This document shows positions 1-40,031 of a stretch of 52,295 bases of DNA, in pieces. The notes beneath the pieces were generated by a model. That model was not told the DNA's origin, made no database searches, and was given only the letters and a program-made list of their open reading frames with translations. This stretch comes from a virus: the IMG/VR virus record IMGVR_UViG_3300003154_000003, positions 1 to 52,295 of that record. One strand, 5' to 3'. The position numbers were made by a program, and so were the translations under genes. How positions within the stretch are numbered: position 1 is the stretch's first letter; each line of letters starts with the position of its first letter.

Positions 1-22
1 AAATAATATTATTTTTCCCTAT
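1..22. repeat. Terminal direct repeat, identical to 52274-52295 (circular closure or terminal redundancy)
   Basis: aaataatattatttttccctat occurs at both window ends. The match cannot be followed further because the window stops there. Confidence 0.9.
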
Positions 23-68
23 AATATAATATATAGGGAAAATTTGGCTAAAATCTTCGAAAATATAT
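1..68. promoter_or_regulatory. Right part of the 80-bp concentric palindromic element L1 (origin-like); the left part is 52260-52295
   Basis: Inner arms are ttttccctat (13-22) and atagggaaaa (33-42). The outer arm tcttcgaaaatatat (54-68) is the reverse complement of 52260-52274. After joining the ends through the 22-nt overlap, both arm pairs share the symmetry centre 27.5. Confidence 0.6.
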
Positions 69-1900
69 TTTCCTTGTTTGAAAGTGAGTGCCTCTCTCAT
101 CATCTCTTCAAAGTCGCGGCATCGCTTTATTTCAGGACTTGTTATATTTTTTTCTGTAAATTCTAAACCTGTATCCTCAACTGTATAGTTTTCAGTAACC
201 TTTCGGCCGAAACCCCAAGCGGTAACCGCTTTACATTGTTTCTCATTGCAACCTATAGCAAAAACTAAAGAAGTTTCTTTGCCTCCGGGGTCCTTGACCC
301 TGCTCCATGCTTGCCATGTATCGCTATGGGTTGCCTCATCTCTTAAAGCGTCGCTTTCCTCTTTCGTTTCGCGGTATGCATCGAAAGCGTTAGCCGGTTT
401 TTCTGCGGCACCCACGGCAATCATAACCCGGCAAGAAGAAGAAACACCCATCATCGACGGCGCCTTATAATAGGTTACGGCGTGCGGGTGTTTGCAGTTC
501 TTAAGCCCGTCTTCTAATATTTTTGCTTCCCTTATCGAAAGTGTGATTATTACGCAATCCTCGTCTCCGTAGGTTTCTAAAATTTTTATGATTTTATATA
601 GTGTCTCCGTAGAGCGTTTATAAAAACTATTCTTACCCACGGATGAAAACTTTTTAGTATCAGCTAATATAAGCATTTTCTTATTGGTCTGCATCGGGTC
701 CCCACCATGTCCGAATAAAACATTTTTTATAACAGTTTTCGGCGCAAATAATCCATGATAGTCGTAACTACATATTGTTGCCGATGTTAAAAACATACGC
801 CTATCCTCTCGCTTTTGTGCTTTCTTCATAAATTTGCTTATCATGTCCGTAAACATTTTATCGACGGCCACAATAGAAACTTTTATTTCTCCATACTCCG
901 GCACCGCATGGATATTGATAAATTCCGATGACATTATAGCAAGCATTTTGTAAAGTTTTAATACCTCATCGAGTGATAAATCATATTTCCGCCTGACCAC
1001 GGTTAACTCTATCAACTCGTTATAAGTAGCCACGATTTCCCTTTCGGTAATATCGCTATAATTATTTTTAAAAGTCTTTGATAGCTTATGCTTAAAAAAT
1101 TCCCGGTCTTTGCTATCTAAATATACCATCATAACCCCGTTTTTTATTTCCCCCTCATCTAATAGCATCCCGTAATCTGCTATTATTTTACGCAGTTGTG
1201 GAAAGTCCTGTGTAATCCTTAGATAATTAGTAAGGTTAACCCACTTTGCCCCATCGGCCGCGGCATCATTGTAAACCACCATCCCCGCACCCCGGCCATA
1301 TTGTATTTCATGCACTTCATCAAAAATTATATTTTTAACACCCATTATCTTATTTAAAATCCTTTCGGCCGTGGTGTTCGGTCGGCTATGGGCTGCAAGC
1401 TGCAAAGCTACAAGTTTCTGATAAGTAATAACAATGCCCCGGTAATCGTTACAATGTAATATCTGTGTTACCGGACAGCTATAATAATGCTCGCAATCCG
1501 CGCACTTTTCGGCAAGTGGCAGTATAGGCAATTGTGCCAACTCGGGCCATTGGTGACACTTTTCTTCATTCAGTAAGCACCTATGATTTGAAGGTATGTG
1601 AATTATAACCCCGTCCGGGTTGTCCGAATACTTCCGCGCCTCTTTTATAATAGTATCGTCGGCAATCGCGTTAGTAGGCACAACGGCTAAAAATTTTTCT
1701 TTTCTGTTCATTGATTCCGCAATTAATGCGGTAGTAGCCCCGGCCCTTGTTGTTTTATAAGTACTCGCAATTCCACCCTTTATATTCTCATAGATAGACC
1801 ACGCCACTAATAACCGCGGGTCGCGCGTAATCTGACCTAATTCTATTTGAACCGTCTGTAATTGCCTCCTTATTACAGATGTACTGATAACTATATAAGC
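1..1900 (-). CDS. SF2 helicase, XPD/DinG-like with a Cys cluster; 5-prime part of an ORF that leaves the window at nt 1 and continues at 52273
   Basis: My own block-by-block translation shows the minus frame (codon starts = 1 mod 3) open from the TAA at 1903-1901 to nt 1. Motifs read: YKTTRAGATTAL (degenerate motif I), HRCLLNEEKC...EKCADCEHYYSCP (Cys cluster between motifs I and II), FDEVHE (motif II), LTSAT (motif III), WQAWSRVKD (motif VI-like). The start is unclear; the first canonical start is GTG at 1807. Confidence 0.7.
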
Positions 1901-2225: not shown

Positions 2226-2353
2226 ATAATCCCCATTTCTTTTTTTACAATGTTCGGCAGCCCTTCAACATCTTCAATAAACTGCTTTCCCATCTCTTCC
2301 AGTTCCCGGGCATCCGATAACTTCCGCAAAATCTTATTTATTTTTATTCTCAT
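2222..2353 (-). CDS. hypothetical small protein, 43 aa
   Basis: My own translation gives MRIKINKILRKLSDARELEEMGKQFIEDVEGLPNIVKKEMGII. It fills the gap between two track ORFs and its stop overlaps the next ATG. Confidence 0.35.
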   Translation of the reverse strand: MRIKINKILRKLSDARELEEMGKQFIEDVEGLPNIVKKEMGII

Positions 2354-2372
2354 GCTCCCGCATCCATTCCCG

Positions 2373-2627
2373 TTAATGTTTTTTCTCCAATTCGTCTACT
2401 GCATAGTATATTGACCGTCTTAAAGAATCTATACCATCTCTAAACGTTTTAGAAAATTCTTTTTCATGTTCGTTCGCCCTAGATAATTCACATGATATAG
2501 AAAATAATTTGTCACCAATTATATAAAGTTCATTGAGTTTATAAACAATAATCCACAATCCTATAGCAATTGATAATATTATTGTTTCCGTGATAAGTAA
2601 AATAATAGCTACATCCACGTTTACCAT
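2373..2627 (-). CDS. small membrane protein, 84 aa, N-terminal TM helix
   Basis: Track ORF with the hydrophobic stretch VAIILLITETIILSIAIGLWIIVY. It is the first gene after promoter-like element A1. Confidence 0.55.
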   Translation of the reverse strand: MVNVDVAIILLITETIILSIAIGLWIIVYKLNELYIIGDKLFSISCELSRANEHEKEFSKTFRDGIDSLRRSIYYAVDELEKKH

Positions 2628-2643
2628 TTATTGAGCCCCGCAT

Positions 2644-2715
2644 ATCATTTCAATTTAAAGCCACTTTTTAAGCCCGTGGCGAGGTCAGTATATAAAGGGT
2701 GGTGTATTCATATTA
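2644..2715 (-). promoter_or_regulatory. Conserved promoter/leader element A, copy 1
   Basis: This is a roughly 72-bp block nearly identical to 10354-10425 and 39908-39979, and partly to 27531-27594. On the minus strand it carries TTTATATA (2696-2689), a T6 run just upstream (2728-2723), and a conserved ATG 41 nt downstream (2648). Confidence 0.6.
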
Positions 2716-2777
2716 CCCCCACAAAAAACTCGCAGAATCGGGCCGTTTCCGTCAATCTGGCATGGGTTTACAGCATG

Positions 2778-2969
2778 TTACCGCAAAGCTTCCAAAACCT
2801 CCGCGACCATTTCCGCCCGGTCCGACCACGCGGATATTAATATTTTATACACTTCGTTAAATTTTTCAGCTCTTATCTTAAGCGATAAGAGCATAAAAAC
2901 AAGATAAATGTTCCGTCTTCTTTCCCGCTCAAAGGGTTTGTTAATTAGCTTCACAATTGTGAATAGCAT
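2778..2969 (-). CDS. hypothetical protein, 63 aa
   Basis: Track ORF on the coding strand; last ORF before the T-run and element A1. Confidence 0.4.
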   Translation of the reverse strand: MLFTIVKLINKPFERERRRNIYLVFMLLSLKIRAEKFNEVYKILISAWSDRAEMVAEVLEALR

Positions 2970-2987
2970 ACATCCCCCTCGAGCCGG

Positions 2988-3281
2988 TCACGGTTCCGGC
3001 TCGTCCCCCTCGTCTTCCTCAACCTCTGCAAAGTACATAAGTATAAGGTCAACTTTTTCATTAAGTTCCTCGATAGCCTTTTCAATTACCCGCAACCGCT
3101 CCGCGCATGTCTTTTTCTTCGGCACGTATGGTTTTATCGGGCCCGGTTTTACTGGCTGTACTACTGGCTCGGGCACACTGTCCCCGCCGCCTGTCACATC
3201 GTCCGGCAATGGTCCGGGCATTGGTTCACCTTTCTTATATCCTGTTAGGTATTCGTCGCACATGTTTAATCCTCCGTTCAT
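2988..3281 (-). CDS. hypothetical protein, Pro-rich centre and acidic C-terminus
   Basis: Track ORF 2988-3323. The internal ATG at 3281 overlaps the stop of the upstream 42-aa ORF (ATGA), so I prefer it as the start. Confidence 0.5.
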   Translation of the reverse strand: MNGGLNMCDEYLTGYKKGEPMPGPLPDDVTGGGDSVPEPVVQPVKPGPIKPYVPKKKTCAERLRVIEKAIEELNEKVDLILMYFAEVEEDEGDEPEP

Positions 3282-3406
3282 GCCGGGCACCCGCACGGCA
3301 TGGCTTTCTTTCCGTTTCTCCAATCGCTTAGAGCGTCTTCTATTTCCTGCCTTAGTTCCCTGCGTAGTTCTTCGCTGGCCGGTACTTTTTTCCTGCTACC
3401 CATCAT
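3278..3406 (-). CDS. hypothetical small protein, 42 aa
   Basis: My own translation gives MMGSRKKVPASEELRRELRQEIEDALSDWRNGKKAMPCGCPA. A GGGTGAG sits just upstream, and TTTTTATAT lies about 25 nt upstream of the ATG. Confidence 0.35.
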   Translation of the reverse strand: MMGSRKKVPASEELRRELRQEIEDALSDWRNGKKAMPCGCPA

Positions 3407-3542
3407 CTCACCCATCCACAATATAAAAATTTTAGATATCTATATGGAACCTGACACCAAAACCATAATTTTAAGAATATAGGCATTGAACCATATCCCA
3501 TATATTTTTTAGATTCCAGTATAAAACAAAATTCTGGCATTG

Positions 3543-3902
3543 TTAACCCTCGTCAATCACATATTCTTCATCCTGCACAACGGCGGGTTTATCTTCGGAA
3601 GTGTATAATATGAACTTACCCAAAACATAATCATAGGTAATTAATCCTTCCTGCACAATGTATATTAACCCGGTGTGCTTCATGAACGGGATTTGAGCGT
3701 CGAACTCGCGTATTATATCCGCGTCGGTTTCTCCGGCTTCCCGCATGGCATCCAGAATAATATTTAAATCTTTCACATCTTCCGCAGTATTAATAAGTCC
3801 GACCATACCGAACTTAATGTTTTTTCGCGTTTCCTCAAGCTGGCTATATGCGTTTCCCATAGCATTCGCCAGCGCTTCAAGTTTTTTATCAAGTTCTTTC
3901 AC
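3543..3902 (-). CDS. hypothetical protein, 119 aa
   Basis: Track ORF on the coding strand; no motif recognised. Confidence 0.5.
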   Translation of the reverse strand: MKELDKKLEALANAMGNAYSQLEETRKNIKFGMVGLINTAEDVKDLNIILDAMREAGETDADIIREFDAQIPFMKHTGLIYIVQEGLITYDYVLGKFILYTSEDKPAVVQDEEYVIDEG

Positions 3903-3953
3903 TCGTTCACCCTCTTAGTAGACTGCATGAAAAGGTTATTCATATCCGCACGC

Positions 3954-4985: not shown

Positions 4986-5285
4986 CTATTTGTTCCCCCC
5001 GTCGTCGATATCATCCGGCATAACTGACATATCCCGGTATACTGCACTTTTGATAAGATAATAATTTTCAAACCGTGGCATCCATTTTTTACGGCTTCCG
5101 TTATCCGGCGCTTCCCCGAATATTTCCACATACATATGTTGCCCGGCACTGGCTCGGTTGATTGCCATAACTTGCGCTCTCTGTCTCCCGATTAATATAA
5201 CATCTCCTATATTAATCATGGAGCCGGGCACAATTTTAATGGTCGCCTCCGTCACATAGGAATACTTATATACTGGTTCCGTCAT
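4986..5285 (-). CDS. hypothetical protein, 99 aa
   Basis: Track ORF on the coding strand. Confidence 0.5.
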   Translation of the reverse strand: MTEPVYKYSYVTEATIKIVPGSMINIGDVILIGRQRAQVMAINRASAGQHMYVEIFGEAPDNGSRKKWMPRFENYYLIKSAVYRDMSVMPDDIDDGGNK

Positions 5286-6821: not shown

Positions 6822-7730
6822 TTATTCCTCCACGTTATCGGTTTCGTCGTCATCATCCTTAACGGTGCAAGCACCGCGGGTTATGTACTCCGCGGCCTTT
6901 GCAGCCCTTCCGGCAGCCCAAACGATAAGCTTCTTATCGTTCTGTAACTTTTCAAGCCACCCAACAATATAAGCGCTGTTTATATCGAAAGTTTCTTCGG
7001 CAATCTCCGCGCCCATCATACCAAGCAGTATAGACGCGCCCATTTCGGCTACAAGTTCTTCGCGGCTGTATGATTCACTTGCGAAAACGTGGTCATCGCC
7101 GTCTATTGCAAAACGGTTTAGACGCTTTGGATGTCCGGTGCTGTGGGTCATTTCGTGAAACATGGCACTATAATATAGTTCCGGCTTTTCGAACTTGTTT
7201 ATTTCCGGCACATTAACCTTGTCCAAAACCTCGCAGTAGTAAGCACCATCATCATAGTGTGTTACTTCCTTAAGTTCCTTAGAGTACAGTTCAACCACAT
7301 TTTCACATTCCTTAATAAGTTCATGCTTAACTGTGCTCTGCTTGCTCTCAATCCCTTCAACCTGCGAGATGTGGAACACATAGTAATATCTAAGCATTGG
7401 AATCCTGACAACTTCCGGGTTTCCATCCTTATCCTTCTTATCGGTCTTCTTTTCAAGCATCTTGAAGTATGTTATAAGGTGTCCGTGCTCTCCCTTCTTA
7501 ACACTTCCTCCGGCCTGCTGTGCCTGCTTGAATGTCATGTATTCGCCACCACCCGGCAGCATGAATAGATTGATACCATGATAAGGCTTTTGTGTAACCC
7601 AATTAACGGGCATACCTTCCGTCCATGTTCTGCGCCACGGTATAACGCCCGTTTCCAAAGCCTTAATCATTCTCTCAGTGACGATTTGGTAAACGTCTAC
7701 CGCCTTGTTGTTGTTGGTCTTTGTTGTCAT
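6822..7730 (-). CDS. ardC: ArdC-like protein: N-terminal ssDNA-binding domain plus C-terminal zincin metalloprotease
   Basis: The N-terminus reads VIPWRRTW...NWVTQKPYHGINLFML, which matches the ArdC/DUF1738 pattern. The C-terminal half contains the HExxH motif FHEMTHSTGH. AGGAGG lies upstream of the ATG. Confidence 0.6.
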   Translation of the reverse strand: MTTKTNNNKAVDVYQIVTERMIKALETGVIPWRRTWTEGMPVNWVTQKPYHGINLFMLPGGGEYMTFKQAQQAGGSVKKGEHGHLITYFKMLEKKTDKKDKDGNPEVVRIPMLRYYYVFHISQVEGIESKQSTVKHELIKECENVVELYSKELKEVTHYDDGAYYCEVLDKVNVPEINKFEKPELYYSAMFHEMTHSTGHPKRLNRFAIDGDDHVFASESYSREELVAEMGASILLGMMGAEIAEETFDINSAYIVGWLEKLQNDKKLIVWAAGRAAKAAEYITRGACTVKDDDDETDNVEE

Positions 7731-9692: not shown

Positions 9693-9954
9693 TTGTTTCT
9701 GCCTCCATCTCGTTAATGCTTACGACTTTGAACGCTGACGCCTTAGATGCATTTAATGACGCGCCCGCGTGCAAGCCTAGCAACTTATCTATTTCTTTGA
9801 AGTCAAGCCCCTTAATATGATGCAAATAATAAATTATAGCTTGGTGTAAGCTAAGATTATATTGTGCATACGCTACCCTCAAAAATGAAGTGGGTATTTC
9901 AAAATCAACGGCTTCCTCCATACTATCACGTCTTAAATGTGTACTTCCTGCCAA
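9685..9954 (-). CDS. small HTH protein (sigma-70 region-4 / LuxR-like helix-turn-helix)
   Basis: Track ORF. LSLHQAIIYYLHHIKGLDFKEIDKLLGLHAGASLNASKASAFKV fits the region-4 HTH pattern. Confidence 0.4.
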   Translation of the reverse strand: MAGSTHLRRDSMEEAVDFEIPTSFLRVAYAQYNLSLHQAIIYYLHHIKGLDFKEIDKLLGLHAGASLNASKASAFKVVSINEMEAETNE

Positions 9955-10216
9955 TCCACATTTTATCTTGCTTTGCCATGTCCTGATTTATGCGCCTTAG
10001 TCTGTTTCCGGCGGCCTTTATGACTTCCTGAATCCTCATAAAGACTTCGGGCGGTTTTACTTCCCCGACCTTAAGAACCACATGGATATTATCATTTGTG
10101 ATAATAACCAATTCGTCCGGCACACCATCCACCATAAACACGGCGGGCGCTCCGCACTGCACATAGGCAACTGGCAACTTACTTAAAGGCAATGCTTTAA
10201 CGCTTATTACCTTCAT
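9926..10216 (-). CDS. hypothetical protein, 96 aa
   Basis: Track ORF; first sizeable gene after element A2. Confidence 0.5.
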   Translation of the reverse strand: MKVISVKALPLSKLPVAYVQCGAPAVFMVDGVPDELVIITNDNIHVVLKVGEVKPPEVFMRIQEVIKAAGNRLRRINQDMAKQDKMWIGRKYTFKT

Positions 10217-10353
10217 AGCAAAGTTTTTTTCTTCGTCTATTACATGTTCATACTGTACTTTTATTGTCGTTTCAATGCCCCCATTTTATTACATTTTGGG
10301 ATACTCTCTTTTAATACGCCGGATAATATAAACCTTTCTGTATGTCAACCAAC

Positions 10354-10425
10354 ATCATTTCAATTTAAAGCCACTTTTTAAGCCCGTGGAGAGGTCAGTA
10401 TATAAATGGTGGTGTATTCATATTA
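10354..10425 (-). promoter_or_regulatory. Conserved promoter/leader element A, copy 2
   Basis: Near-identical to A1 and A4. The minus strand has TTTATATA at 10406-10399. The conserved ATG at 10358 opens a 15-codon uORF (MMLVDIQKGLYYPAY). Confidence 0.6.
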
Positions 10426-10657
10426 AACCCCATGTGAAATTAGCACGGCGGGGCAAATCCGGCAAACCTGCACGGGCTAAAAGGGCCTGATATATCTAGC
10501 AAAAAAGCGCTTAATCCAAAGCATCTTATTTTAATATTTTATTTTTTATCTGAAAAATGTAATGTATGAGAATTTATTAAAATTTATTTGAGTCAGTAAA
10601 CGCATGAAGTTTTTATAAAAGATGGCATCCAACAGATAAAACAGTTTTCTTTTATTT

Positions 10658-10737
10658 TATATTTTCGAAGAAATATACAAAAAAGTCCCAATAATATAAA
10701 GTATATGGACAAATTAAACAATTTCTTCGAAAATATA
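10658..10737. repeat. 80-bp concentric palindromic element L2 (origin-like), paralogue of the junction element L1
   Basis: The perfect 17-bp arms TATATTTTCGAAGAAAT (10658-10674) and ATTTCTTCGAAAATATA (10721-10737) flank an imperfect inner dyad, gtcc..ggac (10685-10710), with the same centre (10697.5). An ungapped alignment to L1 gives 59 of 80 identities. The element lies in the most AT-rich intergenic stretch. Confidence 0.65.
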
Positions 10738-10892
10738 ATTATGTATTTATGAGCAATCAACAGATTAAAATAGGATAAAATCATTTATATGATTGCAAGT
10801 ATGAGGATATTATAATGATACCCCGGATTGTGGCCGGGGTGGAATAATATAGTTTCATGCTGCTATCTCAAATCTATAAATCCGTGGGTCTA

Positions 10893-10946
10893 ATATCGGC
10901 GGTGGGGTTTTTCCTCCTGTTTTCCCTAACGCCAAACCGCCGATAT
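10893..10946. terminator. Hairpin just downstream of the last tail gene (possible terminator)
   Basis: The arms atatcggcggt (10893-10903) and accgccgatat (10936-10946) form an 11-bp perfect stem with a 32-nt loop. On the plus strand it is followed by attttttatt. The long loop lowers confidence. Confidence 0.3.
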
Positions 10947-10955
10947 ATTTTTTAT

Positions 10956-12083
10956 TTAAGATATAAAATTCTGTTTTTGTGCCATCATTTGATTTTCTAT
11001 AAATGATAATATTTCGCCATATGTGGGTATATAGCTACCTAATTCCAGCCGGGTTTTATATCCGCTCTCGTCTATTTCATGCGTCACCCTATACACATAT
11101 AAGTTTGCTCCAAACGTATTACCATTGATAACCATCGACGGCACCTTACAATAAACCAAATCCCCGGCTTCGGCTTGCGTTGTCATTTCTAACGTGCATA
11201 CCCCGGATACTAAAGGCAATTGGTGTATATCGAATATAGAAGATGCAAGCCGGGCGCATAGTTCATTTGTTTCTATACTCCGGTCAATATCTAAAATGTC
11301 TTTGTCTCCTATGCCCCCCGTAACCCTTGCGTATTTTTGTACGGTTTCGTCATTACCGTATACGGTTACGGACCGGGCCATTTCTGTTACATCTACAATA
11401 AATTCAGAATCAACGTAGTTACGGGCACCCTCAACCACTTTATATTTATCGGTTGGGGTGGTCGGTAATGGTTGCCAGCTTGCGACGCAATCAACTAAAT
11501 TGTTATCAGCGTCATAAATAGGAATTGTTTTAAATGAGTATGTTAGAAGTTCCGCCTTTTCTAAAAACTTGATAACATCTTTAACATATTTAGTGTCTGC
11601 TTCAATGTTATAACTATCTAAAACTGTGCCGTTAGTGTCTATTAATGATGGATATTGCTCATGTATTCTATATAGTTCCGGCAGGATGGTTTTTAGAATT
11701 AGCCCGGTGCTGGCATCGGCAAACGAATAAGAATTTTTAATAAGTCTGTTGACCAATTCTACCCCGTGCCCGTGTGCCGTAATTGTTATCTGGTTGTCTG
11801 TTGCCTCGGATTTAGCACGCATTACTTTTATAATGCCGCTAAATATTTCACGCCATCTGTAAAGCCGGTTACGTGAATCTTCGTTTGCCTGAACCCGGAT
11901 AATATCGCCGGTCCTCATGCCACTTATAAAACTTTTCCCATCTATCCGGGCCCCGATTGTTAATGTTACTTCGGCGGTGTCTGCTTGCCACGGGAAAGTT
12001 TTTGTAATAGTTGCCCGGGATAACTTCGGGTAATATTTTTCATATGGGTAAACAGTATGCTGTGTTATTATTCTAAATTCCAT
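10956..12083 (-). CDS. distal tail / baseplate protein, 375 aa
   Basis: Track ORF; last gene of the tail module. GGGTGA lies upstream of the ATG. The call rests on position only. Confidence 0.45.
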   Translation of the reverse strand: MEFRIITQHTVYPYEKYYPKLSRATITKTFPWQADTAEVTLTIGARIDGKSFISGMRTGDIIRVQANEDSRNRLYRWREIFSGIIKVMRAKSEATDNQITITAHGHGVELVNRLIKNSYSFADASTGLILKTILPELYRIHEQYPSLIDTNGTVLDSYNIEADTKYVKDVIKFLEKAELLTYSFKTIPIYDADNNLVDCVASWQPLPTTPTDKYKVVEGARNYVDSEFIVDVTEMARSVTVYGNDETVQKYARVTGGIGDKDILDIDRSIETNELCARLASSIFDIHQLPLVSGVCTLEMTTQAEAGDLVYCKVPSMVINGNTFGANLYVYRVTHEIDESGYKTRLELGSYIPTYGEILSFIENQMMAQKQNFIS

Positions 12084-12087
12084 AACG

Positions 12088-14814
12088 TCACCCGAGTTTC
12101 CTTTCTCTGAATATCAACGACAGTGAAGCATCCGTATAAGTACCGCCGCTCTGTTCAAATGTCAAGGTATTAACACCATTGTTTAATTCCAACAGTTGAG
12201 CGCTTGATGTATCAAGTTCTATATTAAGAATCAAATCGTTTAATGCAGCACTTGAAACAATATCAGCGCTTATTTTTAACCATATCACGGTTTCGCCGTC
12301 ATATGTTACGCCATGCACGATAGATTCTAAGCTATAAGTATTTTCACCTGTTAATACTTCGTCGTCTATATCATACCACGCCGCCGGTTCCTGTAAATTC
12401 CCGGGGTCCATTGCTACCATTATCCGCGGGGTACCCTCGTATATGTCCATATCTAAAGTTAGCTGTGGGGTACCTATAACCGGGTAATAAGTCGGCACTT
12501 TGTAAATAATATATCCGTCGCTATCCAGTGTTAAACTTCCCGGTGAAACGGTATCAAGTGACACGTTATCAAATTCGTAAGCGTCGGCCCGCATCTTCCG
12601 GCTGGTGTATGGGTCCCGGTAATAATATGCTCCGGTACCATCGGCGTTTATTTCGACCTCCCCACCGACCAACATACATGAAACTAAATTTTCTTCAATT
12701 GTTGGTCTGTCATCGTTGATAATTGCCGCCCCGGAAACGTGTCCAAACCCTGTAAATTTTATGTATGGGTCTATCATAGGCACTTCATAATATACACTTC
12801 TTACGTGGTGGCTTGCTCCCTCTTCCCCGGTACACATTGAAAACTGAACGTCGCCGGTTGATGAAATTAAAGTCATTTCCATATAATAGTTTACTCCCGG
12901 GGCGAGTGGAATGCCCCGCACCCCGTCAAGCTGGCTATACATGTTTATACTGACTTCACCCACAACGTTTATATATATTGTTCCGTAGCCAATTATATTT
13001 TCGCGGTCTATGCTATCGAATATATAAATTCTATAGCTGCCGGGCAATGTCACCGACCGGACATATAAGCTGATAGTTTCGACGGAAACGGCTAACGGGT
13101 TATTAATGTTAAAAATGTATCCAAACGCTATGCTGTTTGTACAATTTCCTAGCTGCGTTTCTGCAATTCCGCCACTTTGTAAAGTTCCCTCGCCGTTCTT
13201 GGTGTTAAGTGTACCCCCACCCGTGCGCGGGTTATATGTGCATAGCTTAATACGTCCTGCACCACCGGCCCCGCCGTAGTAAGTAGACCCACCATAAGAA
13301 TAAGCATAGCCTGACCCACCGTTTGCAGTAATACCGGCCGGGGCAACAATGCTAATATCCTTTGCTGTTATTAGTATACCACCGCCGGACCCACTGCCTC
13401 CGCGATAACTACCGTATACGCTCCCGGTATCCCCATCTGCTTTTATACTGCCGGTGTTTGTAACTTCTATGGTTTCGGCTCTTAAGATAATGCACCCACC
13501 ACCGCGCCCACCTATGCCGCAAGTACTCTCTAAGTCAGTGTCCCCGGTAGCGCCGCCGCCGGACCCATGATAAATACCCGGTGAACCTGCCGGGGTGTCG
13601 TAAGTAGTACCGGCACTTGATGCATATAATATATGCCCGGGGTTTCCTACCCCACCATATCCACCGCCGCCGCCGCTATAACTTTCTAAACCTTTGCCTC
13701 CGCCCGGTCCGTCGGCGTTGGGATGGCTGACCCTGCCGCCCCAATACCCGGACCCATACGCGCCCAAAGTACCGGCAATTTTAATATGCTGCGCTCTGAT
13801 TTCGAGCGTGGTTAATTCTCCCATATATGATTCTAAGTCACCGGCTCCATACTGTAACATTGTTACACCGGCGGGGACAATAAAGTTTCTAATGTTATAA
13901 TGTAATCCGTTGGCATACATCCCGGCCGTGGCTACCCAATCTTGCCCGCCGTGGTCCCCGCCGCTTTCATTGGTCCATGCTACCCCGGATGTGTAGATAA
14001 TTGAACCCGAACCGGTTTTTGGATAATATGAAAAAACTTTGACACGGCCCATAGCACCCTTGCCGCCTTCATAAGTCACGCCGTTATAAGTGTAATTAAC
14101 ACCCGCGCCGCCGTCGGCTCTTATTATGCCCCCCTCATCTACATTAATATATGAGCATATTATAAGCACACCGCCGCCACTGCCAGCGCCGCCCTTATTG
14201 GTAGATGTTACCCCCCCATAAACCCACGTAAAGCCCGGCTCTCCATCGGCTGCTATTGCTCCGGTGCTCGAAACGTCAACACTTGTTGCTCTAATAATAA
14301 TACATCCACCGCCCCGGCCACCTCTTCCGGTTGCTTCCTCTGTACTGGCTGGCCCGGTAGCACCTCCACCACTTCCGAAATTAATATCCGTTCCGGCAAA
14401 TGTGCCGTAGGGTTGGCCAGCTAGTCCGGGGTATGAAACATAACCCGGCGTTCCTGTATATCCATAACCTCCGCCCGCACCGCTGTATGTAACCGCCAAA
14501 CCATGAGCCCCGCCCGGACCATCTGCGTTAAGGTGTCCATATCGGCCGCCGTGATATCCCGACCCATACGCAGCAAGCCAACCCCGGATTATAACAGTTT
14601 CCGCCCGTATTTCTAACTTCGTGCCCCCGCCCGCCAATGATGCACTGTCACTCATTCCACTTTGATAAACGGCGCGGTTGGTGTCCACGCAAAACGTGCC
14701 AATATTATAATGCAGCCCGTTAATATATTCATTATTTGCCGGATACCAATCATCTCCGCCGTGGTCCCCGCCGCCTTCGTTTGTCCATGTCATATTAAAC
14801 CCACCTATCGACAC
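12088..14814 (-). CDS. glycine-rich tail tip / fibre protein with an internal tandem duplication, 908 aa
   Basis: Track ORF. Two modules of about 270 aa start WTNEGGGDHGGDDW and WTNESGGDHGGQDW. They share LEIRA...AYGSGY.GGR...NADGPGG...GSGGGATG...GRGGRGGGCII.RA...ADG. The position after the tape measure and Dit-like genes supports a tail role. Confidence 0.55.
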   Translation of the reverse strand: MSIGGFNMTWTNEGGGDHGGDDWYPANNEYINGLHYNIGTFCVDTNRAVYQSGMSDSASLAGGGTKLEIRAETVIIRGWLAAYGSGYHGGRYGHLNADGPGGAHGLAVTYSGAGGGYGYTGTPGYVSYPGLAGQPYGTFAGTDINFGSGGGATGPASTEEATGRGGRGGGCIIIRATSVDVSSTGAIAADGEPGFTWVYGGVTSTNKGGAGSGGGVLIICSYINVDEGGIIRADGGAGVNYTYNGVTYEGGKGAMGRVKVFSYYPKTGSGSIIYTSGVAWTNESGGDHGGQDWVATAGMYANGLHYNIRNFIVPAGVTMLQYGAGDLESYMGELTTLEIRAQHIKIAGTLGAYGSGYWGGRVSHPNADGPGGGKGLESYSGGGGGYGGVGNPGHILYASSAGTTYDTPAGSPGIYHGSGGGATGDTDLESTCGIGGRGGGCIILRAETIEVTNTGSIKADGDTGSVYGSYRGGSGSGGGILITAKDISIVAPAGITANGGSGYAYSYGGSTYYGGAGGAGRIKLCTYNPRTGGGTLNTKNGEGTLQSGGIAETQLGNCTNSIAFGYIFNINNPLAVSVETISLYVRSVTLPGSYRIYIFDSIDRENIIGYGTIYINVVGEVSINMYSQLDGVRGIPLAPGVNYYMEMTLISSTGDVQFSMCTGEEGASHHVRSVYYEVPMIDPYIKFTGFGHVSGAAIINDDRPTIEENLVSCMLVGGEVEINADGTGAYYYRDPYTSRKMRADAYEFDNVSLDTVSPGSLTLDSDGYIIYKVPTYYPVIGTPQLTLDMDIYEGTPRIMVAMDPGNLQEPAAWYDIDDEVLTGENTYSLESIVHGVTYDGETVIWLKISADIVSSAALNDLILNIELDTSSAQLLELNNGVNTLTFEQSGGTYTDASLSLIFRERKLG

Positions 14815-15448
14815 GCTTATATATTATAGCGCTGCTTTCGCTCGATGTTAGCAATATATCAACTAATGCCCCCGACTCGCTGGCTGTTATTATGCTTCGT
14901 CCGTCCTCATCTTCGGATATACTCATCGGGTTATCATCGATATAAATATCATACTGTGATTCATTAATCGAATATCTAAAGGGTGTTTCAGATACTAGTC
15001 GAACGGTCCACGGGAAAGATGTTAAAAAGCCTATATCCTCTTCCGGTGTGATTTCTTCCAATTTGACTTTATATATCCACCCTTCATGGAATACAAAATC
15101 ATTAACCTGTTCCCGGGCAAATTCATTTAATACGGCTTGCCTCTGTGCTTCCGTGCGCTCTACCCCGGAAACGTGTAAGGTCATTACATCCCAACCCATC
15201 GGTCTAATAACATTAAAATTGCTTCCCGGGGTTTTTGTTTTCGACTGCACATAACTTAATACAGTTCCAAAATTCGTTACATTACATTCAATGCCGTTTA
15301 TTGTTGCTTTCGGTGGGACTGTATATTGACCCTGTAAATTAATTACAAGTGCTGATTGTGGTGTAAATCCCCGGGTAGCAATAAGCATATCCAAAATATC
15401 GGTGTCGGTTTGAATCCCGCCCCCCGCTATAGCCATGTAGTTAATCAT
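14795..15448 (-). CDS. distal tail protein (Dit-like), 217 aa
   Basis: Track ORF immediately after the tape measure gene and overlapping it by 4 nt. The call rests on synteny. Confidence 0.45.
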   Translation of the reverse strand: MINYMAIAGGGIQTDTDILDMLIATRGFTPQSALVINLQGQYTVPPKATINGIECNVTNFGTVLSYVQSKTKTPGSNFNVIRPMGWDVMTLHVSGVERTEAQRQAVLNEFAREQVNDFVFHEGWIYKVKLEEITPEEDIGFLTSFPWTVRLVSETPFRYSINESQYDIYIDDNPMSISEDEDGRSIITASESGALVDILLTSSESSAIIYKRVDRWV

Positions 15449-17673
15449 TGTCTAACACTTCCCGAACTTTTAGCACCAACCGCCGTAATAACTGACTTGC
15501 TAAAATCATAACTAATGCGCTTAACGTCGCCGGAATTGTTTATACTGCCAACGTTTACCGTCTGATTAACCTCAACCTTTCGGGCATCGGATGAATGTTT
15601 CGCGGCAGCACTTGCGTATATTGTGCCTGTATAGCTTGGATTGTATGACCCGGACCGGATTAAATCGCTCTCTAGTTTCATTTCGTCAATTGTCTGCTTC
15701 CGGGCCGTACTGTTTGCAGCTATAGCGGAAGTATTAGAATTGACCGATTCGGTTAACGCGCTGTTAATATCCGCAAGTAAGTTTGTAGCGTTGGCTTGCC
15801 CGGTTGCGTAGCTGGCCCAATTTGCAAGCGACCCGGTGGCACTTTCTGCTAATGATGCTGTTTGTTCTGCTGTCCTCGGTGTTGTTAGATAACTAAAGAA
15901 GCTTGCCGCTTGCTGTCTCGCTTTCGTGAAATCGGCATTAAGTGTTAATGTGGGTATATTTATACCGAATAGAGCGCCCAAACTGCTTACCGCTTTTGAA
16001 ATGCTATCAACCGTATTTAAAACCGTTGATACTATACCAAAGAACCACTTTGTAACGTTTGTATATACCCATTTGGCAACTTCTACAATTTCGTCTAATT
16101 GACGCCATGCTACTATAGCGGCCCCAATAGGTCCAATAAGCAATAAAGTAGTGTCGGATAAACTGTTTATCCAACCCATTAAACTATTAATAGCATCCGG
16201 TACTTTGACCTTTAACCAATCGTATAAATTGCCTAGTATCATAGTTAAATAGCTGACGGTTTCCGAAACTACCCCGTACCGTTTTTCTAATGCATATAGT
16301 ACTAATATGACTGCCGCAATTGCACCCACTATTAAAAGATATGGAGCCAATGCAGCCCACGACGTCCTGGCCCAAATAAGCTGTAACCCGGACAGCGCTT
16401 TTATACCGGTTGCTATCGGGCCTATCATCATTAAGATAGGTCCTATAGCAGCGCCAACGGCCAATAGCGCAACAACTCCTATCTGTATCGGTGCGGGCAA
16501 GTCTGCGAAAGCCTGACCAATTGCAATAATAGCCGGGGCAATCTGTTCTTTAAATATTGGCAGAAGGGTGTCTCTAAGCAACGGGACAACAATGTCTTTA
16601 AGCATAGGAAGAAAAGCATTTCCTATCTCTGTCGTGACGGCTGCGAAACTCGTTTTCATTTCATTAAGGCTTTGCTTTGCCGTTGCTCCCATTCTTTCGT
16701 AAGCTTGAGCGGCCGCGCCCTCTGCGTTGTTCATATCTTCAATAGCTTTTGCAGTTGTGGCCGAATTTTTACCCATTAATTCTGTAACAGCTGCCGCGGC
16801 TTCTGAACTGCTGAAATATGCATTTAAAGACTGTCCGGTTTTTTTGGAATCATCTTCTATAAGTTTCAATGCCTGTTGAAGTGTTCCCCCGCTTGCTATG
16901 AAATTTTTAAATGTTGTGCCTGAAAGTTCTTCGAATTTTTTCCCGGCTTGCTGTGTGGTATCGCCCAACTCTATAAACATTCTTTCTAGTTGTGTAGCGG
17001 CTACGGTTGTCGGGATACCTTGCATAGTTATTGCCGCAAGTGACCCGGCGACGTCTTCAAACCTTACACCCAACGCGGCGGCAACCGGGTTAACTTTATA
17101 AAGGCTTTGTGACATCTCTTCGAATGTTGTAGCACCAAATGCCGCGGCTTTGAACATGACGTCGCTTGCTCTCTGCACGGTTATAACATCTTTACCGTAT
17201 GCGTTGACCACTTGGGATAAACCTTTTACAACTGTATTTAAGTCAACGACTCCGCCTATAGATGCTTGGCTCGCGGTTTCCATAAAAGTAAATACATTGT
17301 CCTGACTAATTCCCGCGCTTAATGCGTCGTATAATGCCGGTGCTATCTCATCTGTAAAAATTCCATATTTGGCAGACAATGCGAGCACATCATCCGACAT
17401 GTCTTTCATGGCCGTGTCTGAAATGCCGGGCAACATCGTAAAAACCCGGCTCATATTATCTTCAAAAGTCACGGCCTGATTTGTCATAAGTCCGAGGGCA
17501 CCCGCCGCGGCAGTAATTGGCACGGTTAAACCCATCGTTAACCCGGTGCCTATGGTGGACGCCTTAGATGAAAAGTTGTCTATTGCTCTCCACTCTTTAT
17601 CTATATCGTCGGATAATGTCGATTTCAAACCGAACATTACAAAAATTTCGCCTAATATTTCCGCGGCTCCCAT
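15445..17673 (-). CDS. tail tape measure protein, 742 aa
   Basis: The TP901-type core pattern is visible (LSAKYGIFTDEIAPALYDALSAGI...ASIGGVVDLNTVVKGLSQVVNAYG). There are central hydrophobic segments and Ala/Ser-rich helices. The gene sits after the chaperone genes. Confidence 0.85.
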   Translation of the reverse strand: MGAAEILGEIFVMFGLKSTLSDDIDKEWRAIDNFSSKASTIGTGLTMGLTVPITAAAGALGLMTNQAVTFEDNMSRVFTMLPGISDTAMKDMSDDVLALSAKYGIFTDEIAPALYDALSAGISQDNVFTFMETASQASIGGVVDLNTVVKGLSQVVNAYGKDVITVQRASDVMFKAAAFGATTFEEMSQSLYKVNPVAAALGVRFEDVAGSLAAITMQGIPTTVAATQLERMFIELGDTTQQAGKKFEELSGTTFKNFIASGGTLQQALKLIEDDSKKTGQSLNAYFSSSEAAAAVTELMGKNSATTAKAIEDMNNAEGAAAQAYERMGATAKQSLNEMKTSFAAVTTEIGNAFLPMLKDIVVPLLRDTLLPIFKEQIAPAIIAIGQAFADLPAPIQIGVVALLAVGAAIGPILMMIGPIATGIKALSGLQLIWARTSWAALAPYLLIVGAIAAVILVLYALEKRYGVVSETVSYLTMILGNLYDWLKVKVPDAINSLMGWINSLSDTTLLLIGPIGAAIVAWRQLDEIVEVAKWVYTNVTKWFFGIVSTVLNTVDSISKAVSSLGALFGINIPTLTLNADFTKARQQAASFFSYLTTPRTAEQTASLAESATGSLANWASYATGQANATNLLADINSALTESVNSNTSAIAANSTARKQTIDEMKLESDLIRSGSYNPSYTGTIYASAAAKHSSDARKVEVNQTVNVGSINNSGDVKRISYDFSKSVITAVGAKSSGSVRQ

Positions 17674-21360: not shown

Positions 21361-23598
21361 TTACCGTCTCCGCGTGTTGTTTCTATATATTATATATGAA
21401 GCGACAATATAAGAAACTACAAAACTGCCGACAACATAACTATCTTTTATATGTGTACCGCCAACGTCTGCAATCCATGTTTGACTATCTGCTGAAATTA
21501 AGGCAGGTATATTATAATCTGTGCCGCCCGTGTTGTTAAATGTATACGTTGCGGCTGTCACACTTGTATTTGTCTGTACTGTGCTGCCGTTGAGTTTCCA
21601 TGTTACGTTCTCGGCACCATCTAAATTAACAGTGAATGTCTGTGCTGTATTAGGTTTTATATACGGTGTGGTATCCACCGGCAAATATGAAATAATCTGA
21701 TTCGGTGAAACTGTTATTATCCATGTCTGACTATCCCCAAATACTGGGGCAGTTATATTATATTCTCCGGCTGCTGTAGCTGGAAAAGTATAATGTCCTT
21801 CTGTGCTTCCGCTATCTGTTTCCGCTAAACTGCTGTCTACATACCAACTTATATCATCGGCTTGGTCTATGGTAACGTTAAATGTTATGGCGTTATCTTC
21901 GGCCACGGCTGGCGTTGTATCAATTGGTGTAAAATCTGTTATAGCGGTATAATTGTATTCCAAAGCAACATCATAATATTTTGAAGTTCCGGTTGTTAAG
22001 TCGCCTATATCTATTACGATATTGTCACCGCTGCGTTCCACGGTTGCGCCCGTCTGGTTTGATACCATCGACGGGTCGAAAAGCCTATCAGTGACGGCAA
22101 GCGGATATGTTAAGGTTGCTGCCGCCAGGTCATGCGTTGGTGTAAACACGAGATTTACTAAATGATGTGTGCTGTTATCGGTTTCCTGAACCTTTGTATA
22201 ATTTGTTACAAAGTAAAGCAATAAAGAAACATCGTGCGACTGCGTGGAGTTACTAACAAATTTAACATTCTGTAAATTCTTTGGAACGGCTACGCTCTGG
22301 TTTGTGCTCGTTAAAGGTGTTTCGGTTCCAGTAGAATTTATTTGAAACTTTGTGCCCGCATATCCTAAAGTAAATTCTCTTATAATGCTTTGGGGCAATA
22401 CGGTATTATACAATATTGTGTAATCTATGGTACTGTTCCAAAACCCGGCTGAACCTGTAGAACCTATATTAAGGTTTGCGGTGGTACCTGTTACAGATGT
22501 ATAAGACGTTGAACTATTAGCGCTTAGTTCTCCATTCTTATAAAATAGTCCCCTGTCTGTGGTGGGTGAAATTGAAACCGCGTAATGTGTCCAATTATAC
22601 ATAGCCGTTTTTGATTCGTTAACGGCTCCATAAGCGTATTTTGTACCGCCTGAATATACATAACCGGCATGTCTTAATGTTGCTGCACCATCGTATTTTA
22701 TACCGTATTGGTTAGCCTTATAAATAAGACGTGTCCCGTCTGCTTCGGGGTATCTGTATATTCCTGCAAGCATTGTTATTTCGTCGGTAATATTTAATGA
22801 CGCCGTTGACGTACGGTTTAATTGGTCATTACCATCAAAACGTAAAGCGCTGTTTGCATTACCGAAACGGTCATTTACTGGCGTTGCTGTAGTGGCACCG
22901 AGATTATTAGCGTTTGTGCTTATATCGTTATTATTTCCCTCAAACGGCCATGCGGCAACAACATTTGACTGTCTAGGATATGTTGAGATGTTGGACTCGT
23001 CCCAAACTTGATATGTCTGTACATTCGGAAAAATTATATACATGGCTGTTGCATTTGGCACCCCGACGGTTATAGTCATATCGGCAACGTTTCCGTTAAC
23101 CGTTTTATATAGATAACCAACGGCTCCGCCTATAACAACTTCAGAAAAATTTGAAACTATTTCTATATCGCCGTTTTTATCCATAACGTCGGCCGTATTA
23201 TAAATAAGTGCGGTGTCTACAACGCCTTCGTTATTTATATGCACATAGCTAAATTGTTTGCCGTTGTAGTCCTTAAGTTTCTTAAGTGTGTTCTCGTTAA
23301 ATTTCAACTTTGCTTTTTTGTCGGATTTTTCTTTATCTGAAATTAATAGCTTTCCGTCTATATCTGAAACTTTATAATTATTAGCGTTACTATTTTTAGT
23401 AGTTATTTGAATTTCCCCTGAAAATTTAGCGGGGCAATCTATCACTGTTTTATAACTGCCGCCGGTTTGGTCATCAGATGTTTTTTTATCATCGCCCGCG
23501 GCTACGGCTGACGCTGCACAACTTACTAAGAAAATACATGCAATAAATAATATTCCCAATTGTTTTATTTTGGGAATTAAGCTTGTAAACATCTTCAT
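21361..23598 (-). CDS. secreted, lipobox-bearing LamG/ConA-like lectin-fold protein with two Ig-like repeats and a C-terminal TM anchor, 745 aa
   Basis: The N-terminus KQLGILFIACIFLVSCAAS is a signal peptide with an L-V-S-C lipobox. NSALRFDGNDQL...ITMLAGIY fits the LamG_3 pattern. Two C-terminal repeats of about 65 aa follow (F.V......W..[DN][GS]...Y.F...G.Y.I...W). The protein ends VVGSFVVSYIVASYIIYRNNTRRR. There are more than 20 N-x-S/T sequons. Confidence 0.6.
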   Translation of the reverse strand: MKMFTSLIPKIKQLGILFIACIFLVSCAASAVAAGDDKKTSDDQTGGSYKTVIDCPAKFSGEIQITTKNSNANNYKVSDIDGKLLISDKEKSDKKAKLKFNENTLKKLKDYNGKQFSYVHINNEGVVDTALIYNTADVMDKNGDIEIVSNFSEVVIGGAVGYLYKTVNGNVADMTITVGVPNATAMYIIFPNVQTYQVWDESNISTYPRQSNVVAAWPFEGNNNDISTNANNLGATTATPVNDRFGNANSALRFDGNDQLNRTSTASLNITDEITMLAGIYRYPEADGTRLIYKANQYGIKYDGAATLRHAGYVYSGGTKYAYGAVNESKTAMYNWTHYAVSISPTTDRGLFYKNGELSANSSTSYTSVTGTTANLNIGSTGSAGFWNSTIDYTILYNTVLPQSIIREFTLGYAGTKFQINSTGTETPLTSTNQSVAVPKNLQNVKFVSNSTQSHDVSLLLYFVTNYTKVQETDNSTHHLVNLVFTPTHDLAAATLTYPLAVTDRLFDPSMVSNQTGATVERSGDNIVIDIGDLTTGTSKYYDVALEYNYTAITDFTPIDTTPAVAEDNAITFNVTIDQADDISWYVDSSLAETDSGSTEGHYTFPATAAGEYNITAPVFGDSQTWIITVSPNQIISYLPVDTTPYIKPNTAQTFTVNLDGAENVTWKLNGSTVQTNTSVTAATYTFNNTGGTDYNIPALISADSQTWIADVGGTHIKDSYVVGSFVVSYIVASYIIYRNNTRRR

Positions 23599-27455: not shown

Positions 27456-27530
27456 TGCACAATTAGTTTAATGATTTTTATAATGCAATGCGTGATAACG
27501 ATTTAAAAAAACGCTATGCGTGGGTGCATC

Positions 27531-27594
27531 GATTTAAAGCCACTTTTTAAGCCCGTGGTGAGGTCAGTATATAAAGGGGTATACTTTCCTATTA
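27531..27594 (-). promoter_or_regulatory. Conserved promoter/leader element A, copy 3 (most diverged)
   Basis: It shares gatttaaagccactttttaagcccgtgg.gaggtcagtatataaagggg with the other copies. The minus strand has TTTATATA at 27575-27568 and a T7 run upstream. The ATG at 27529 opens an 8-codon uORF. Confidence 0.55.
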
Positions 27595-27739
27595 ACAAAA
27601 AAAGTTATGCGTTTTCAGCCATCCGATAGCGAAAAGGGTCTTATATAATTTGAAAAGTCGGCGGTGAAACCCAATCCTATAAAAGTTAGTGTCGGAAATA
27701 CTGTTTAGTAAAAATAAAAGAAGTCGTTTTTAAAGTTTA

Positions 27740-39445: not shown

Positions 39446-39912
39446 TCTTCTTTATTGTCGTCTGCCGTCCCGGTTGCCCGCGTTAACCGTTCCTTCCTTA
39501 TAACGGCTAGTTCTTTTTCGACGTTCAATAAACGCCTCCATAGTTCATCACGTTCCCGGTTATCCGCTAACATCCTTTGATAGCAATCAACGTGATAATG
39601 TTCTGTACCCAATAGTATATAGTTCTTTCCCTCTACCTTCTTACCACATGCCGTATAAGGGCATATATACACGTTCGCGGCTTCATTCTCCGGTTTGTAT
39701 ACCAACATAGCGACAGCATCATTAAATTCCGTGGCAAACTGATTAACCCGGCTAATAAAGTCCTGCGTTTGTTCGGTTCTCGGGTCATCTGCGAGCAACA
39801 AATCTAAAGAAGTTTTTCTAAGTTCCTTAAGAATTTTATGTGCATCGTTAAGCACTCTATCATATTTTTGTAGATTCATTCTATAGCACCTGATTATGTT
39901 TACTGATATCAT
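39415..39912 (-). CDS. Zn-ribbon plus coiled-coil protein, 165 aa
   Basis: Track ORF containing CPYTACGKKVEG...HYHVDCY. The listed ATG at 39912 is the conserved ATG of element A4. An alternative start is 39879 (MNLQKYD). Confidence 0.55.
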   Translation of the reverse strand: MISVNIIRCYRMNLQKYDRVLNDAHKILKELRKTSLDLLLADDPRTEQTQDFISRVNQFATEFNDAVAMLVYKPENEAANVYICPYTACGKKVEGKNYILLGTEHYHVDCYQRMLADNRERDELWRRLLNVEKELAVIRKERLTRATGTADDNKEDCKDGACKVL

Positions 39913-39979: not shown

Positions 39980-40031
39980 ACCACCCCGAAAAAGTGGGAA
40001 ATCGCCGCCTTTCCGTCAATATATGAATGCA

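Follow-up and report, generated by a model that had tools for sequence, protein, structure and literature searches.

The intergenic palindrome and its surroundings

The stretch of DNA considered here is the IMG/VR virus record IMGVR_UViG_3300003154_000003, analysed over its full length of 52,295 nucleotides (the window). One of its intergenic gaps holds a complete palindromic element, referred to as copy B, and a second copy of the same element, copy A, lies across the ends of the contig. The gap is non-coding from 10217 to 10955, that is, from the stop codon of a tail gene to the start of the next gene at 10216. Copy B occupies 10657-10738, is assigned to no strand, and is defined by its 18-nt arms, by its match to a covariance model and by its fold as single-stranded DNA (ssDNA). 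The left outer arm, TTATATTTTCGAAGAAAT (10657-10674), has the same sequence as its counterpart in copy A, and the right outer arm is ATTTCTTCGAAAATATAA (10721-10738); the two are perfect over 18 nt and enclose an interior of 46 nt. An inner dyad with an A/T centre (10685-10710), consisting of GTCC (10685-10688) and GGAC (10707-10710), is concentric with the outer arms on position 10697.5. This dyad is degenerate, is paired in the predicted fold, can be aligned with the intergenic copy of the closest relative, and is the counterpart of a CCCTATA...TATAGGG core found throughout the family.

The first-pass annotation of this DNA, made from its letters, had described perfect 17-bp arms at 10658-10737 around a concentric gtcc...ggac dyad, located in the most AT-rich intergenic region and identical to the element at the contig junction at 59 of 80 positions. 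The arms turned out to be 18 nt long, the shared centre and the limits of the non-coding stretch were found as described, and the ungapped identity between copies A and B was reproduced exactly (59/80). The stretch around copy B from 10521 to 10820, with a GC content of 21%, is the lowest-GC 300 nt of the genome. The description of 10500-10800 as almost pure A/T was overstated, since GC content there is 17-26% in 100-nt windows.

Both the arms and the fold depart clearly from random expectation. The 17-mer arm, with up to three mismatches allowed, occurs five times in the window against 0.41 expected, a number reached in none of 100 shuffles, and four of the five occurrences are the arms of copies A and B. 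Among perfect inverted repeats whose spacer does not exceed 100 nt, the two longest in the genome are likewise those of copies B and A. As ssDNA, copy B folds with -16.1 kcal/mol (z = -5.4; none of 200 shuffles was as stable), and the covariance model matches it at 10650-10745 with 52.3 bits and E = 1.3e-6 (6.8e-8 with filters off). With filters off, the same model detects no further copy in the window. The arms have TTCGAA as their core, a hexamer that is neither over- nor under-represented (16 in the window, 12.2 expected).

An 11-nt inverted repeat, GTGTATATTTC / GAAATATACAC, with a spacer of 56 nt, is found at 43653-43730 within coding sequence and partially resembles the arm motif, with a three-mismatch match at 43711-43727. 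It was rejected as a member of the family due to the lack of a covariance-model match, and is probably a chance occurrence.

Transcriptionally, copy B is preceded directly by the last gene of the tail module (10956-12083, minus strand), whose product is 48% identical to that of positions 2293-3492 in the closest relative, locus L010. It is followed by the first gene of the next small-gene operon (9926-10216, minus strand), homologous to L010 4017-4343 (E = 3e-15). Between the tail-gene stop and copy B there are two GC-rich hairpins on the minus strand (10821-10946), one with the arms ATATCGGCGGT...ACCGCCGATAT (10893-10903/10936-10946) and the other formed by CCCCGG...CCGGGG (10821-10839). Between copy B and the next operon lies a promoter- or leader-like repeat on the minus strand (10352-10466), one of four repeats of 70-115 nt (2642-2756, 10352-10466, 27529-27596, and 39906-40020), each in an intergenic gap heading a block of minus-strand genes. 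Their invariant minus-strand core, TTAATATGAATACACCACCCTTTATATACTGACCTC.CCACGGGCTTAAAAAGTGGCTTTAAATTGAAATGAT, contains TTTATATA, similar to an archaeal TATA box, followed by a small hairpin, CCAC...GTGG. Together they look like one reused promoter and leader serving all four operons, and the hairpin or leader part is recognisable in L010 at ~3885-3925.

This arrangement brings in a transcript-level explanation, in which copy B would be a terminator of the tail operon, an insulator or an RNA stability element, and copy A an mRNA hairpin causing ribosome pausing or attenuation between two protein domains. In both genomes copy B follows the tail operon and precedes the next promoter-like repeat, the folding is strong, and with only one coding strand both copies would be part of transcripts. 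The sense strand, however, has no T-run after copy B, and the GC-rich hairpins, being nearer the stop codon, are better candidates and the likelier transcript-end structures of the late operon. A scan of 9800-11300 gave no terminator-like site, a result that is uninformative for an archaeal virus given that the scan models bacterial sigma-70 promoters and intrinsic terminators. Rfam gave no match over the window at the gathering threshold, and only one at chance level (E = 0.75) for 10150-11000.

The copy embedded in the helicase-Prim-Pol gene

The contig has a 22-nt terminal overlap (1-22 = 52274-52295) and thus represents a circle of 52,273 bp, in which copy A spans the junction. The left part of copy A (52261-52295) comprises the outer arm (52261-52277) and most of the left inner arm, with 52274-52295 duplicating 1-22. 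Its right part (1-67) holds the inner dyad at 13-23/32-42 (TTTTCCCTATA / TATAGGGAAAA) around a loop at 24-31, and the right outer arm at 51-67, which has two mismatches. All arms are centred on 27.5, and the ssDNA fold reaches -19.2 kcal/mol (z = -6.5). The two copies are 10.67 kb apart and their 17-nt arms are identical or near-identical.

Copy A, first described as a junction element, is not intergenic but part of a gene; both this and the circular form of the contig had escaped the first-pass annotation. Once the circle is closed, it lies in frame within a 954-codon open frame that spans the contig junction, where it makes up codons 612-638, translated as YIFEDFSQIFPIYYIIGKNNIISSKI, in the linker between a helicase domain and a primase-polymerase (Prim-Pol) domain. 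The 5' part of this gene (1-1807, minus strand, with an uncertain start codon in a frame that stays open as far as 1900) encodes a DinG/XPD-like helicase of superfamily 2 (SF2), and the 3' part (51309-52295, minus strand) encodes the copy A linker and then a Prim-Pol of the archaeo-eukaryotic primase (AEP) type. The gene has ~920-950 codons. Its product, referred to here as the helicase-primase, matches DinG in its N-terminal half (6fwr, Foldseek, E = 1.5e-7), and its Prim-Pol domain matches Pfam AEP-TOTE (E = 4.5e-24), the CAPP Prim-Pol in the PDB (7nqd, E = 1.2e-27), and 7p9j (Foldseek, E = 5e-12). The gene is continuous through copy A, as more than 100 full-length homologues of ~950 residues cover 97-100% of the query. 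In the AlphaFold model, linker residues 613-630 have a pLDDT below 50 and no secondary structure. Four cysteines of the helicase domain (C108, C133, C136, and C142, with a CxxCx5C spacing, at window residues ~108-142 of the alignment) are invariant or near-invariant and, together with the DinG/XPD fold match, suggest a helicase with an Fe-S cluster fused to a Prim-Pol, a combination that was not found among solved structures.

The position of the contig break within copy A is in itself peculiar. The 22-nt overlap ends one base short of the end of the left inner arm, at the boundary between stem and loop of the inner dyad, and the chance of an arbitrary break falling inside the 80-nt element is ~0.15%. 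The break is either a technical one at an AT-rich palindrome or a physical end. The latter would make the element a packaging or terminus signal of the cos or pac kind, with the ends of the virion DNA inside copy A. This explanation is very improbable: the overlap is off the dyad centre, unlike a cosN-type staggered cut, the site would be internal to an essential gene and distant from the genes for head morphogenesis, and two assemblies of the L010 virus break elsewhere, at mutually different positions. The break can equally well be put down to coverage falling off, or assembly failing, at a palindrome of such extreme AT content, and a packaging role would leave both copy B and the family-wide linkage to the helicase-primase unexplained.

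A family-wide palindrome constrained at the DNA level

Relatives of the helicase-primase gene were taken from IMG/VR, GTDB genomes, and JGI metagenomes and assemblies. A nested palindrome of ~96 nt is located at the same linker position in ~40 distinct homologous genes with protein identities of 27-56%, and in 33 of 41 distinct genes this position holds the best short-spacer palindrome of the whole ~2.9-kb gene. The palindrome is present even at 27-29% identity, including one homologue from a Methanotrichaceae genome. Across lineages, the arms of the inner dyad measure 8-18 nt and its spacers 5-13 nt, with a pure-A/T centre of 5-13 nt enclosed by the arms. It is part of a much larger palindrome, as most lineages carry one or two further concentric arm pairs, adding up to three tiers and to 25-36 symmetric pairs out of 45. 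The arms are lineage-specific yet complementary, as illustrated by TTTTCCCTATA/TATAGGGAAAA in the window and by AAAATCTCCTA/TAGGAGATTTT, AAAAACTGCTAAT/ATTAGCAGTTTTT, AAACCGCTTATA/TATAAGCGGTTT, and AACCGTCTAT/ATAGACGGTT in its relatives.

The covariation of the arms was quantified in 30 sequences, each centred on its own best symmetry, a choice that favours pairing in the counts. Pairs are formed in 69.8% of cells, compared with 51.0% in shuffles (reached in 0 of 500) and 35-46% in slid registers; cells with a double change number 263 versus 120 in shuffles (0 of 500), and the covariation score is 0.436 versus 0.161. When synonymous codons were resampled with the amino acids fixed, 27 of 42 genes did not reach the observed palindrome in any of 300 resamplings, and 34 of the 42 reached it no more than three times in 300. 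Isolated mismatches in the stems (14 G-T, 24 A-C, and 77 others) show no bias towards wobble pairs. Since codon resampling almost never reproduces the palindrome and G-T mismatches are not in excess, the constraint is one on the symmetry of the DNA and not on a hairpin of the sense-strand RNA. The peptide PIYYIIG, conserved in the linker, is then a by-product, the translation of CCCTATA...TATAGGG.

These data also bear on the transcript-level explanation, since stems kept as RNA would be expected to tolerate G-U-compatible mismatches, of which there is no excess (14 G-T vs 24 A-C). A terminator inside an essential gene, kept in ~40 lineages, is hard to justify, and an RNA hairpin does not need a strict two-fold symmetry that includes unpaired spacers of equal length. 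A role in the transcript is thus considered unlikely for either copy.

A covariance model built from the family sequences and run over 1.0 Mb of relatives returned one match per locus, at the linker, the exceptions being the B copies and locus L098. That symmetric arms vary between related viruses argues against recognition of a single host consensus. The exact 17-nt arm, sought in IMG/VR, had nine chance matches there, all single and unpaired, and led to no relative, and searches of IMG/VR for an arm pair of the L010/L098 type gave only unrelated chance palindromes. No small circular contig with the helicase-primase gene alone was found, and none of the fetched loci has terminal overlaps. A gene-embedded DNA palindrome of this kind was not found described in the literature searched.

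In two of the related loci, a gene for an ERCC4/XPF-type structure-specific nuclease is encoded upstream of the helicase-primase, either directly (L147, 4641-5357) or at ~2.7 kb (L144, 6489-7325); it was not detected in the window. Such a nuclease could be relevant if the palindrome were processed as a branched structure.

Second copies, relocation, and concerted change of the arms

The second, intergenic copy was found only in the window virus and in its closest relative, L010, whose helicase-primase is 56% identical to that of the window (L010, L145, and L146 are the same virus, with 100% identity). The copy B of L010 is 8.2 kb upstream of its embedded copy. It is flanked by orthologues of the same two genes as in the window, the tail gene (48% identity) on one side and the gene that opens the next operon on the other, and lies upstream of the shared leader-like block. 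Similarity between the two B copies is insufficient by itself to establish their relationship, and it is their synteny that indicates that they would be orthologous. Each B copy carries the outer arms of the A copy of its own genome. The similarity between A and B within a genome (63/82 in the window, and 80/88, or 91%, in inverted orientation in L010) exceeds that between genomes (62/91 for the A copies and 62/89 for the B copies), so the arms of A and B change in concert. This may reflect either gene conversion or the adaptation of both copies to one diverging recognition factor.

The first-pass annotation had called for a search of both copies in related viruses, and had named as a refutation relatives that retain the replication genes but not the element. 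The outcome is divided. The embedded copy is kept almost everywhere, whereas the intergenic one, within ~±10 kb, is kept only in the closest relative. The gene-embedded copy is the ancestral, family-wide one, and copy B is therefore a lineage-specific addition and not a universal second origin.

The element has also moved in another lineage. In L098 (36% identity), the linker palindrome has been lost and the covariance model locates the element at 5013-5106, 17 nt past the stop codon of the same gene. It has perfect arms of 26 nt and a core of CCCATAT...ATATGGG, and the start of its arm, TATAAATATTGTTC, is identical to that of L010 copy B. The element can thus be located outside the open reading frame (ORF), where it persists, and might function, while still remaining with the helicase-primase gene.

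Mobility of this kind is what a selfish or self-maintaining palindrome without a viral role would show, with its symmetry generated by intrastrand template switching or repair and with occasional copying, similarly to REP or MITE sequences or to the palindromic elements of Rickettsia. At least two changes of location (copy B in the lineage of the window and L010, and the downstream site in L098) are compatible with this explanation, as are the translation of the element as a tolerated, unstructured linker and the possibility that self-templated correction yields strict symmetry. Copy B is moreover flanked, ~16 nt away on each side, by an imperfect 17-nt direct repeat, GCATCCAACAGATAAAA (10625-10641) and GCAATCAACAGATTAAA (10753-10769), identical at 14 of 17 positions. 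This repeat, however, is not adjacent to the arms, is not seen around L010 copy B, and may be a chance product of AT-rich DNA. A selfish element would also be expected in many copies, and there are only one or two per genome (one in nearly all relatives), at a constant position in the same gene down to 27% protein identity. In L098 the element lost from the linker is found immediately beside that gene, and copy B has kept its syntenic position, with arms that have stayed intact and co-varying, over a divergence of ~50% protein identity. A purely selfish nature is therefore improbable.

The presence of two copies also suggests site-specific recombination, with the inner dyad as a core of the lox, FRT or dif type and the outer arms as accessory sequences. 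A single copy could serve dimer resolution, and two copies the inversion or excision of a ~10.6-kb early segment. The inner dyad, with arms of 11-13 bp and an A/T spacer of 8-10 bp, is in many lineages close to a 13-8-13 geometry, the early-gene segment lies between the two copies in both the window and L010, the two copies of L010 are 91% identical and inverted, and covarying arms would follow from the co-evolution of a recombinase with its site. Nevertheless, Pfam and PHROGs detected no recombinase of the tyrosine or serine type, no integrase, and no Xer-like protein among the ORFs of the window, and a host XerA would be unable to follow arms that differ between three proviruses (L026, L030, and L038) of one Methanolobus genome. 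The helicase-primase gene is intact in integrated proviruses, which excludes the site as attP, and the ~96-nt, three-tier extent far exceeds a recombinase core. No inverted isoform is seen in either assembly, and the genes are all co-oriented. Recombination is accordingly assigned a low probability.

A candidate replication origin

The explanation preferred for the palindrome is that of a cis-acting replication origin, or of a place where the helicase-primase is loaded, copy B being either a second such place or an auxiliary one; the probability of this explanation is estimated at nearly an even chance. An extended version of the proposal would have the ~90-bp, three-tier palindrome of the linker as the replication origin of the whole of this large family, made up of uncultured viruses and proviruses of the Methanosarcinales, with initiator and origin forming one co-evolving module, PIYYIIG being merely a translated DNA structure, and the intergenic copy of the subclade, with its co-evolving arms, being a second origin or a partner similar to crr of phage P4. 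This version is plausible, although its probability is put distinctly below even.

In the proposed mechanism, the lineage-specific outer and middle arms would be recognised symmetrically by the helicase-primase or a partner, either on the duplex or on an extruded cruciform. The pure-A/T centre would then melt, or become the tips of the hairpins, allowing the helicase to load and the Prim-Pol domain to prime on the exposed single strands. A site placed within the initiator gene would make protein and site inseparable, and this joint inheritance would fit the lineage-specific arms observed. Copy B, in its AT-rich gap, might act as a second loading site, be it an extra origin or an auxiliary one like crr of P4. 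It may fire by itself, assist the embedded copy or have acquired another role.

The gene content of the window is in line with this proposal to the extent that the helicase-primase is the only replication protein identified. The first-pass annotation had compared the element with archaeal origins built on origin recognition boxes (ORB). Inverted boxes around an AT-rich centre are indeed present, but no Orc1/Cdc6, AAA+ initiator, MCM or Rep was found in the scanned ORFs (Pfam, PHROGs), no recombinase, ParB, helix-turn-helix or Orc1 domain was found in 52 small ORFs, and the arms are lineage-specific and follow the replication gene of the virus itself, so that an Orc1-dependent origin of the ORB type has no support. 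The annotation had also offered two origins, or one origin plus a copy of another kind; an origin-type function is still the best explanation, with the restriction that copy B belongs to one lineage.

Several observations weigh against an origin. The GC skew of the whole sequence has no origin signal; with all genes on a single strand, it is monotonic. In copy B the inner dyad is degenerate, with GTCC/GGAC in place of the 11-nt arms of copy A. The covarying inverted arms would be equally expected of a recombinase or repressor site, and the counts that document them benefit from the centring mentioned above. To our knowledge, SF2 helicases of the DinG/XPD type are not a known origin-melting class, unlike the superfamily 3 (SF3) helicases of pRN1 and SV40. 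Lastly, more distant relatives have no second copy within ~±10 kb as judged by BLAST, half-site search, and covariance model, nor does L147 within ~5 kb of flank on each side, so the second site would be dispensable for the family.

The GC skew at four-fold sites was also considered as evidence on the origin. It is smooth, with peaks at 0-5 kb and 47-50 kb and a trough at 25-27 kb, and it was rejected since the trough coincides with the highly expressed capsid and tail genes and is confounded by codon usage.

If the proposal of an origin holds, this would be the first candidate replication origin for a widespread group of methanogen viruses without isolates. It would also provide a compact rep-plus-ori module, consisting of one gene with the site inside it, as a possible replicon for genetic tools in Methanosarcina or Methanolobus. 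The hypothesis is directly testable, as synonymous recoding can destroy the palindrome with the protein unchanged, and the same element placed inside, beside or far from its gene constitutes a natural experiment. From the point of view of overlapping codes, a DNA palindrome would here dictate a conserved peptide in a disordered linker, which calls for caution when such motifs are read as protein function.

Comparison with known systems

Known origins include stem-loops or palindromes associated with a primase-helicase as well as sites located within the gene of the initiator, and the present element may be viewed as a variant of these.

A close parallel would be the archaeal plasmid pRN1, which needs a 100-nt stem-loop beside its AEP-primase/helicase gene in order to replicate, although the stem-loop can be displaced and still work; similar stem-loops adjoin related phage genes, such as the replication gene of Bordetella phage BIP-1 (PMC4234260). 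In common with these, the present family has an imperfect hairpin or palindrome of ~100 nt physically linked to a gene whose product joins an AEP-type primase to a helicase. As in pRN1, its position is not fixed, since besides the linker it may occupy a site past the end of the gene (L098) or 8-10 kb off (copy B). The stem-loop of pRN1 lies downstream of its gene, the helicase of ORF904 is C-terminal and of the SF3 class, and the function is proven; in this family, for which an origin function is proposed, the element is usually inside the ORF and the helicase is N-terminal and SF2 DinG/XPD-like. There is no detectable sequence relationship between the pRN1 stem-loop and the present element.

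As regards location, the ori of phage lambda sits in gene O, in its inter-domain linker region. In N15, replication initiates within the primase-helicase gene repA (PMC2847241). The likeness to lambda O and N15 repA is limited to a cis site inside the coding sequence of the initiator, inherited with it as a unit. The lambda ori is made of direct iterons and an AT-rich block, whereas the architecture found here is a nested inverted repeat, with no array of direct repeats (iterons).

Phage P4 uses two distant cis sites, ori and crr, both bound by the alpha primase-helicase. The alpha protein is among the subjects of PMC4234260. The window would resemble P4 in having two sites kilobases apart with a shared recognition sequence, and a primase-helicase as the sole dedicated replication protein. 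In P4, however, the sites are arrays of direct octamer repeats and crr is required, whereas copy B is absent from most relatives, and the primases of both N15 and P4 are of the TOPRIM/DnaG type and not AEP.

The origins of herpes simplex virus (HSV), oriS and oriL, are multi-copy palindromes with an A/T centre. They share with the present element the A/T-centred palindrome, inverted boxes (there for an SF2-helicase origin-binding protein), the occurrence in several copies, and a primase of the AEP superfamily. They differ in belonging to a eukaryotic virus, in that UL9 is separate from the helicase-primase, and in being located between genes. Archaeal ORB and mini-ORB origins likewise have inverted recognition boxes around an AT-rich stretch, but these are bound by Orc1/Cdc6, lie beside orc1/cdc6, and follow a family consensus, in contrast to lineage-specific arms that follow the helicase-primase gene.

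Outside replication, the palindromic elements of Rickettsia are a case of palindromic repeats that have entered protein genes without breaking the reading frame. The parallel is that of a translated DNA palindrome whose conserved peptide would be a by-product; the Rickettsia elements, however, are multi-copy in unrelated genes, compared with one position in one gene family here.

The virus, its host, and other features of the genome

Every plausible gene of the window is on the minus strand. The genes include those of a tailed virus, namely a tape-measure protein (15445-17673) and tail, head-tail connector, minor-head, and Mu-F-like proteins. A 1307-residue protein encoded at 35062-38985 (minus strand) combines disaggregatase and beta-helix domains (Disaggr_repeat, E = 2e-45; Disaggr_assoc, E = 2e-40) and is probably a virion depolymerase for the methanochondroitin matrix of Methanosarcina. 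A similar protein is encoded by L146. Relatives of the replication gene occur in the genomes of Methanolobus, Methanosarcina, and Methanotrichaceae and, together with the disaggregatase protein, they indicate that the host is very probably a member of the Methanosarcinales, and probably of the Methanosarcina type. No match to GenBank phages was obtained with megablast over 25 kb, nor any relative of the replication protein with tblastn. Scans of the window for tRNA and tmRNA genes gave none.

The early region between the two palindrome copies encodes an ArdC-like protein (6822-7730, minus strand), with ArdcN and zincin-like metallopeptidase domains at ~1e-28 each, for which an anti-restriction or ssDNA-binding function is possible. 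Among the structural genes, that at 27894-29369 (minus strand) codes for an unusual fusion of a Mu-F-like minor head protein with a zeta-toxin or AAA_33 kinase-like domain (E = 1.5e-22). Direct repeats are located inside the genes for a 908-residue structural protein (13936-13979 / 14746-14789, 86% identity) and a 745-residue structural protein (21473-21520 / 21719-21766, 77% identity), where they probably correspond to repeated protein domains.

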